Position numbers and translations under genes: made by a program. Positions 53,217 through 53,507 of a stretch of DNA of 64,000 nucleotides are shown here, one piece after another. Below the pieces are notes generated by a model that had not been told where the DNA came from, did no database searches, and saw only the letters and a program-made list of their open reading frames with translations. The DNA comes from Escherichia coli. Lineage in GTDB: Bacteria; Pseudomonadota; Gammaproteobacteria; Enterobacterales; Enterobacteriaceae. Location of the stretch: NCBI RefSeq assembly GCF_041886205.1, contig NZ_CP169029.1. The stretch is one strand, 5' to 3'. Each line of letters begins with the position of its first letter. The first letter of the stretch is position 1.

Positions 53217-53507
53217 AAACCGGCTGAATGAAGGTGAGAATTTTAAAAGACCGGAGGAGTAAACGGGATTATTAATTGCTTATTTGCATATTACTATTGA
53301 GGTTTCATAATCTTAGGAAATAAATGATACATGCGCTTTTCGGACTATTGAAAACTGCCCCTGTGCTAAATTTGTAAACCCAGCGCCGACAGGCTTGCGT
53401 AAAACTCTTTTGGTGATAATGTGAGCCTTCCAAATCCAGACTATTCCGATTTGGGATCCATTTTGCCGTCCTGGCGTGTGTAACCGTTTTATCAAGGAAT
53501 AAGCAGT

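Follow-up and report, generated by a model that had tools for sequence, protein, structure and literature searches.

The yafL-dpaA spacer of an Escherichia coli genome without dinJ-yafQ as the probable ancestral, unoccupied allele of a polymorphic toxin-antitoxin site

The window, the 64,000-nt stretch of Escherichia coli DNA analysed here, carries yafL and dpaA (yafK) as divergent neighbours separated by a spacer devoid of toxin-antitoxin (TA) genes (Table 1). The yafL ORF has the same annotation in near-identical genomes (RefSeq), and the dpaA ORF scored 428 bits against the NCBIfam model LdtF_DpaA_YafK (cutoff 365), its protein being 100% identical to the K-12 counterpart. A sequence-only reading of this DNA had put the gap between the two genes at only about 290 nt; the ORF coordinates give 291 nt, or 300 nt if yafL starts at its second ATG, the choice of RefSeq for some alleles. 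The same reading placed dinJ-yafQ between yafK and yafL in K-12, and MG1655 indeed has yafQ (b0225) and dinJ (b0226), a RelB/RelE-type type II TA system, at this chromosomal position between the same two flanking genes.

Table 1. Coordinates of the features at and near the yafL-dpaA and dinB-yafP sites of the window
Feature	Position	Strand	Description
yafL	52458-53216	minus	252 aa; NlpC/P60 (C40) peptidase gene; Pfam NLPC_P60, E 7e-32
dpaA (yafK/ldtF)	53508-54248	plus	246 aa; peptidoglycan meso-DAP protein amidase; NCBIfam equivalog LdtF_DpaA_YafK
yafL-dpaA divergent intergenic region	53217-53507	.	291 nt; no TA genes, no Rfam family
Allele-specific segment	53144-53367	.	224 bp, about the first 24 yafL codons plus 151 nt of spacer; global and ungapped alignment
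dpaA-proximal 140 nt	53368-53507	+	common to both alleles; alignments
Sigma-70-like match TTTGCA-17-CATAAT	53283-53311	+	directed toward dpaA; consensus scan
72-aa ORF	53305-53523	minus	antisense to dpaA start and leader; spurious
Empty yafNO site	47872-47878	minus	dinB stop and yafP start overlap in a single ATTATGA
rayT (yafM)	51785-52282	minus	REP-associated tyrosine transposase flanked by REP/naRNA4 copies
dinB	47872-48927		overlaps yafP by 4 nt (ATGA)
yafP	47423-47875		overlaps dinB by 4 nt (ATGA)

The TA module was said to be missing from the interval, and our searches detected neither its genes nor a remnant there. When K-12 DinJ, YafQ, YafN, and YafO were compared by tblastn (E <= 10) with the whole 64-kb window, the best match had E = 0.24 and none fell in the interval. 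The antitoxin DinJ (RelB/DinJ family, Pfam PF04221) had its best match in the window inside dpaA (E = 7.6), and the toxin YafQ (a YafQ/RelE-fold mRNA interferase, Pfam PF15738) at 445-567, away from the interval (E = 0.44); no DinJ-like ORF is present in 53217-53507. Comparison of the 830-bp K-12 cassette with positions 53100-53520 by blastn-short (word size 7) returned chance matches of 7-13 nt (E >= 1), and global alignment of the cassette with the window gave scattered blocks of 2-16 nt only. No Rfam family matched the interval at E <= 1, and at the gathering threshold the whole window yielded only REP/naRNA4 copies and the thrW tRNA. The window therefore lacks dinJ-yafQ at the yafL-dpaA site, an observation that is confirmed.

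A second TA slot, that of yafNO, lies 5.5 kb from the dinJ-yafQ site and is likewise unoccupied. The absence of yafNO, also claimed from the letters alone, holds: dinB and yafP overlap by ATGA, and the 64-kb window has no coding capacity for YafN or YafO, YafO having no tblastn match in it and YafN a best match of E = 0.24 over 13 aa, away from the dinB-yafP junction. Hence the interpretation built on both absences, that this strain lacks both TA modules of the neighbourhood, is supported. Without yafNO, as in UTI89, dinB-yafP forms an undisturbed bicistronic operon (PMC7167474); in the window it would be a two-gene operon, probably translationally coupled. In K-12, yafN-yafO occupy 752 bp between two copies of ATTATGA (11948-11954 and 12707-12713 in L001, the K-12 locus numbering of our alignments), of which the window has a single copy. 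This 7-bp repeat would fit either target duplication or microhomology-mediated insertion of yafNO.

Between the lfhA remnant and yafL there is a third variable slot (flanks 51470-51784 and 52367-52461), which holds rayT, hicAB, or nothing. It contains rayT with REP/naRNA4 copies in the window and K-12, hicAB in ESDR8 and CFSAN061763, hicB only in M21170, and nothing in C 237-04.

The two alleles of the yafL-dpaA site were delimited by global alignment. The left boundary falls at window 53143/53144, corresponding to K-12 L001 6777/6776, and the right boundary at window 53367/53368, corresponding to L001 5947/5946, so that 224 bp in the window stand opposite 830 bp in K-12 (L001 5947-6776). Measured from the genes, the right boundary precedes the dpaA ATG by 140 nt and follows the yafQ stop codon by 15 nt. 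The left boundary is inside yafL, about 22-25 codons into the gene, where identity in an ungapped comparison jumps from about 40% to 100%. Because this boundary falls inside yafL, the YafL signal peptides differ between the alleles, being MSFMSSFLLGRFLHPGVFSLCVLLPLFASA in the window and MSLPSIPSFVLSGLLLICLPFSSFASA in K-12; the K-12-type yafL 5' end reads MSLPSIPSFVLSGLL... On the dpaA side the K-12 locus and the window share the 140 nt at 99.3% identity. The 830 bp of K-12 comprise dinJ, yafQ, the promoter region of dinJ, and a yafL upstream region and yafL start (about 21 codons) that differ from those of the window, where none of this content is present. Whereas yafNO is a clean insert with a 7-bp direct repeat, the dinJ-yafQ allele replaces ancestral sequence that includes part of a gene. 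Since the TA-bearing allele replaces the yafL 5' end, deletion of dinJ-yafQ in K-12 does not recreate the natural empty allele.

The state of the site outside E. coli was examined by a DpaA scan of species-representative genomes, which returned 80 loci. In E. albertii, Escherichia sp. E1V33, and strain SCPM-O-B-8794, as well as in a dozen Citrobacter representatives and Phytobacter massiliensis, yafL adjoins dpaA with no TA genes; among the species-representative loci, dinJ-yafQ occupies the site only in Escherichia sp. MOD1-EC7003. The segment 53144-53367 can be aligned with E. albertii, Escherichia sp. E1V33, SCPM-O-B-8794, and B2 E. coli. Among the YafL N-termini, those from the three outgroups within Escherichia resemble the window and those from Citrobacter are more distantly related, so that the window N-terminus (MSFMSSFLLGRFLHPGVFSLCVLLPLFASA...) is of the ancestral Escherichia type by outgroup comparison. 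The window and Citrobacter share a core upstream of yafL, and their YafL N-termini are related. Since the 224 bp are homologous to outgroup spacers, the sequence comparisons indicate that the window carries the ancestral, unoccupied allele of the site. The absence of dinJ-yafQ would accordingly be not a loss but the original form, which is one of the modest points added by the present analysis.

How common this allele is was determined in a population set of 5426 complete E. coli genomes. The yafL-dpaA query matched in 5424 of them; the allele-specific 232 bp of the window (the empty allele) was present in 2084 genomes (38.4%) and the K-12 dinJ-yafQ segment in 3340 (61.6%). These two counts add up to exactly 5424, leaving no third state. 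The partition is near-perfect and the site is in effect a two-allele polymorphism, which argues against second-site copies of dinJ-yafQ, for which little room is left. At a frequency of 38%, the empty state is a common, ordinary E. coli variant. By comparison, yafNO was found in 2847 of the 5426 genomes (52.5%) and is absent from 47.5%. The joint frequency of both absences was queried with 6.4 kb spanning both sites, a measure confounded by REP repeats. The finding matters little for the window itself. It serves mainly as a descriptor, placing the strain in the large minority of E. coli that have no dinJ-yafQ and in the approximately one half that have no yafNO, and it is a reminder that the TA complement of K-12 is not the species norm.

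An uneven distribution among phylogroups was reportedly described by Fiedoruk in 2015 (as cited in PMC7167474). Published surveys already document such unevenness for both modules (PMC6896753, PMC7167474): yafQ-dinJ was found in all examined genomes of the E/B1/A lineage and, in the other lineage, only in phylogroup F (PMC6896753), and no TA system was common to four reference strains (PMC7167474). UTI89 and other B2 strains without the modules have the same yafL-dpaA order and overlapping dinB/yafP as the window. The B2 strain C 237-04 resembles the window in having both sites empty but is without rayT, which the window retains. The B2 version of the 232-bp segment is about 92.6% identical to that of the window, the latter being 11 bp shorter.

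Sequence type ST410 is one that we take to be phylogroup C. The ST410 strain AR24.2b (PMC6774230) carries an empty allele identical to that of the window, and because phylogroup C is part of the lineage in which the module is said to be universal, this adds a nuance to the published distribution (PMC6896753).

Taken as a whole, the findings are very probably explained by a native spacer, the empty form being the ancestral one of the two alleles at this polymorphic site. The interval would be a divergent yafL-dpaA promoter region that was never interrupted, and the other allele, that of K-12, would be the one bearing a mobile dinJ-yafQ type II TA operon. The alternative that fares best retains the ancestral type of the allele and questions only its vertical descent: a lineage that formerly had the TA module could have regained the empty allele by homologous recombination with an empty-site donor. 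Several findings are compatible with such a secondary replacement. The region is mosaic, with identity to K-12 of 99.5% on the dpaA side and 94-96% from yafL to dinB; genomes such as WCHEC020031 share the 232-bp segment unchanged, with flanks that differ by 1.5-3%; the yafNO, rayT/hicAB, and dinJ-yafQ slots assort semi-independently among the sampled genomes; and the allele shared with AR24.2b (PMC6774230) places the empty form also where the TA allele is usual. However, yafL and dinB are highly diverse in all compared E. coli, whatever their TA state, and since the same diversity is seen regardless of that state, the yafL-dinB divergence is no specific evidence of import. We regard replacement as unlikely, though it deserves more weight than the readings that follow.

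Much less credible is a secondary deletion, in which an ancestor with dinJ-yafQ had the module excised and was left with the short interval. The module is present in sequence-close relatives such as K-12, with a dpaA-side flank 99.5% identical, and in every EB1A genome examined in one survey (PMC6896753). A deletion, however, cannot create 224 allele-specific bp that include a different yafL start and that align with E. albertii, with other Escherichia lineages, and in part with Citrobacter; nor is a cassette remnant detected by tblastn or blastn-short, and at the left breakpoint the sequence switches sharply within yafL instead of showing a gap. Judged from the homology of 53144-53367 to outgroup spacers, the deletion reading appears effectively refuted.

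The small ORFs of the spacer were considered separately. The sizeable ones are the 72-aa minus-strand ORF, one of 60 aa, and one of 46 aa, none of which has a significant Pfam or NCBIfam match; the 60-aa ORF gave a sub-threshold chance match to Pfam MCR (E 0.15, 12.2 bits against a cutoff of 30.4). The 72-aa ORF had been described as featureless, and it is also not conserved, being cut to 21 codons in five compared relatives (B2 E. coli, E. albertii, and three other lineages, L003, L004, and L006) and differing at its C-terminus in K-12 and ESDR8. Lack of a family match and the truncation at codon 21 led us to reject it as a small protein-coding gene. That the interval hides an unrecognised gene replacing the TA function, be it a novel small toxin in the form of this ORF or a small RNA, is highly improbable: the ORF exists and conservation across Escherichia is strong in parts of the spacer, but the ORF runs antisense to the dpaA start, no Rfam match appears even at E <= 1, PGAP annotates nothing in the spacer of close relatives, and divergent promoters together with a dpaA leader would account for the conservation.

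The composition of the TA-bearing haplotype bears on its origin. Far from being unrelated DNA, its yafL-proximal portion in K-12 (L001 6504-6776) is an orthologue of the yafL 5' region that has diverged. The K-12 yafL upstream core, CTGAAAT...TTAATTTTATAATAATGG..ATTAAG, matches C. amalonaticus over 48 nt at 81% and is closer by far to C. amalonaticus and Phytobacter than to the Escherichia empty alleles. The TA-bearing version of the roughly 21 signal-peptide codons likewise resembles these two more than it does the empty alleles. These relationships suggest import by homologous replacement as opposed to simple insertion. It is possible, at somewhat less than an even chance, that a haplotype of about 830 bp was imported in this way from an enterobacterium outside Escherichia, the crossovers falling near yafL codon 22-25 and 140 nt before dpaA, so as to bring in a foreign yafL promoter, signal peptide, and dinJ-yafQ and to remove an ancestral distal dpaA promoter. 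Should this be true, the original regulation of yafL and dpaA would be preserved in the window, and TA presence or absence across E. coli would be coupled to two YafL N-termini and two modes of dpaA transcription.

Among the YafQ homologues, no donor with a yafL-linked dinJ-yafQ copy was found. Those of at least 90% identity are all from E. coli where the source is named, and those that could be placed sit at the yafL-dpaA locus; the next tier, at 82% identity or less, includes Salmonella, Klebsiella, Xenorhabdus, and Yersinia. One Salmonella enterica homologue that was looked up (YafQ 79%; contigs L092-L095) is carried by lambdoid prophages, with the Q antiterminator on one side and the holin/lysis genes on the other, which is a typical moron position. 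In Escherichia sp. MOD1-EC7003 (L006 3031-3860), dinJ and yafQ are 98-99% identical to K-12 and the flanking yafL, dpaA, yafJ, and gmhA 89-96%, a pattern suggesting that Escherichia lineages exchanged the TA haplotype more recently.

The conservation of the spacer points to its regulatory role. The dpaA-proximal 140 nt show 98.6-99.3% identity among seven compared E. coli genomes. Set against the neighbouring coding sequence, they are 93% vs 94.5% identical in E. albertii and 85% vs 84% in C. youngae; between genera, they are about as conserved as the dpaA coding sequence, or more so. This stretch is probably the dpaA 5' UTR or leader together with the proximal promoter. A candidate dpaA promoter was read by eye as TTGCGT (53395-53400), 16 nt, and TGnTAATGT (53414-53422), and was not called by the consensus scan. 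The scan itself returned two sigma-70-like sites against 1.5 expected by chance, so that a match alone is not significant, and the promoter and terminator matches as a whole are at chance level. One of the sites, TTTGCA-17-CATAAT, falls within the allele-specific segment, is conserved among the empty-site Escherichia alleles and is absent from the TA-bearing allele. We infer the promoter assignments in the spacer from such chance-level consensus matches combined with conservation.

With these assignments, dpaA and yafL of the window would be transcribed from their own spacer promoters, and neither the dinJ promoter nor a yafL promoter borne on the cassette would drive them. On the basis of K-12, yafK has been suggested to lack its own promoter and to be co-transcribed with dinJ-yafQ (PMC5120126). 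In empty-site strains, by all appearances, dpaA must have its own promoter, which would contradict the K-12-based suggestion of none (PMC5120126).

The site has parallels in other TA polymorphisms of E. coli, namely yafNO in dinB-yafP, mazEF in relA-mazG, and hicAB, which are likewise small mobile operons between core genes, present at intermediate frequency and leaving intact "empty" operons in strains without them (PMC7167474, PMC5120126). One account describes TA modules as having entered between core genes by horizontal transfer and gives the spacings in K-12 as 209 and 155 bp (PMC5120126). Six dinJ-yafQ-negative genomes outside the lineage of the window were sampled; yafNO is absent from three (C 237-04, WCHEC020031, and ESDR8) and present in the other three (CFSAN061763, SCU-105, and M21170), and because of this even split the yafNO and dinJ-yafQ slots can be said to assort semi-independently.

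Two core genes in this neighbourhood are unusually diverse, independently of the TA state. Nucleotide identity among the compared E. coli is 91-95% for yafL (window 52458-53143; one allele 98.5%) and 95-97.5% for dinB, as against 97-99% for the neighbouring dpaA and yafJ. A single divergent yafL-dinB block, 94-96% identical to K-12 and joining both empty TA sites, was considered and rejected, both for this independence and for the yafNO carried by three of the six sampled dinJ-yafQ-negative genomes.

The lineage of the window is rare. Over proBA-pepD, identity of at least 99% was found in only 9 of the 5426 genomes, and only two, wlxctx60 (NZ_AP045833.1) and 6EVA (NZ_CP138428.1), match at about 100%, both reaching 100% over this segment; against wlxctx60, the window is 99.95% identical over 19.5 kb. 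In both relatives these sites are likewise empty, and their spacers carry no PGAP annotation. Indels at thrW set the window apart from both, and a further one in ehaA sets it apart from wlxctx60.

Next to the tRNA-Thr gene thrW (37462-37534), the two closest genomes carry a 12-kb island with a degraded integrase, manganese catalase, ferritin-like proteins, and fdeC, where the window has 2.3 kb (35185-37456) with a 326-aa ORF bearing a SMEK N-terminal domain and an IS1 transposase fragment. Near position 25420 (ORF 25390-27390), a 3.26-kb deletion relative to wlxctx60 has eliminated most of pdeL and the 3' portion of ehaA, an autotransporter gene, so that a truncated ORF of 666 aa is left. Collinearity with wlxctx60 stops just after yafV (59920-64000), where the relatives carry IS256/IS1 and degraded type VI secretion and Rhs genes. 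At 45427-47204, a pair of genes for an rtcB-family RNA ligase and release factor H (prfH) is intact in the window, both being pseudogenes (ykfJ and prfH) in K-12.
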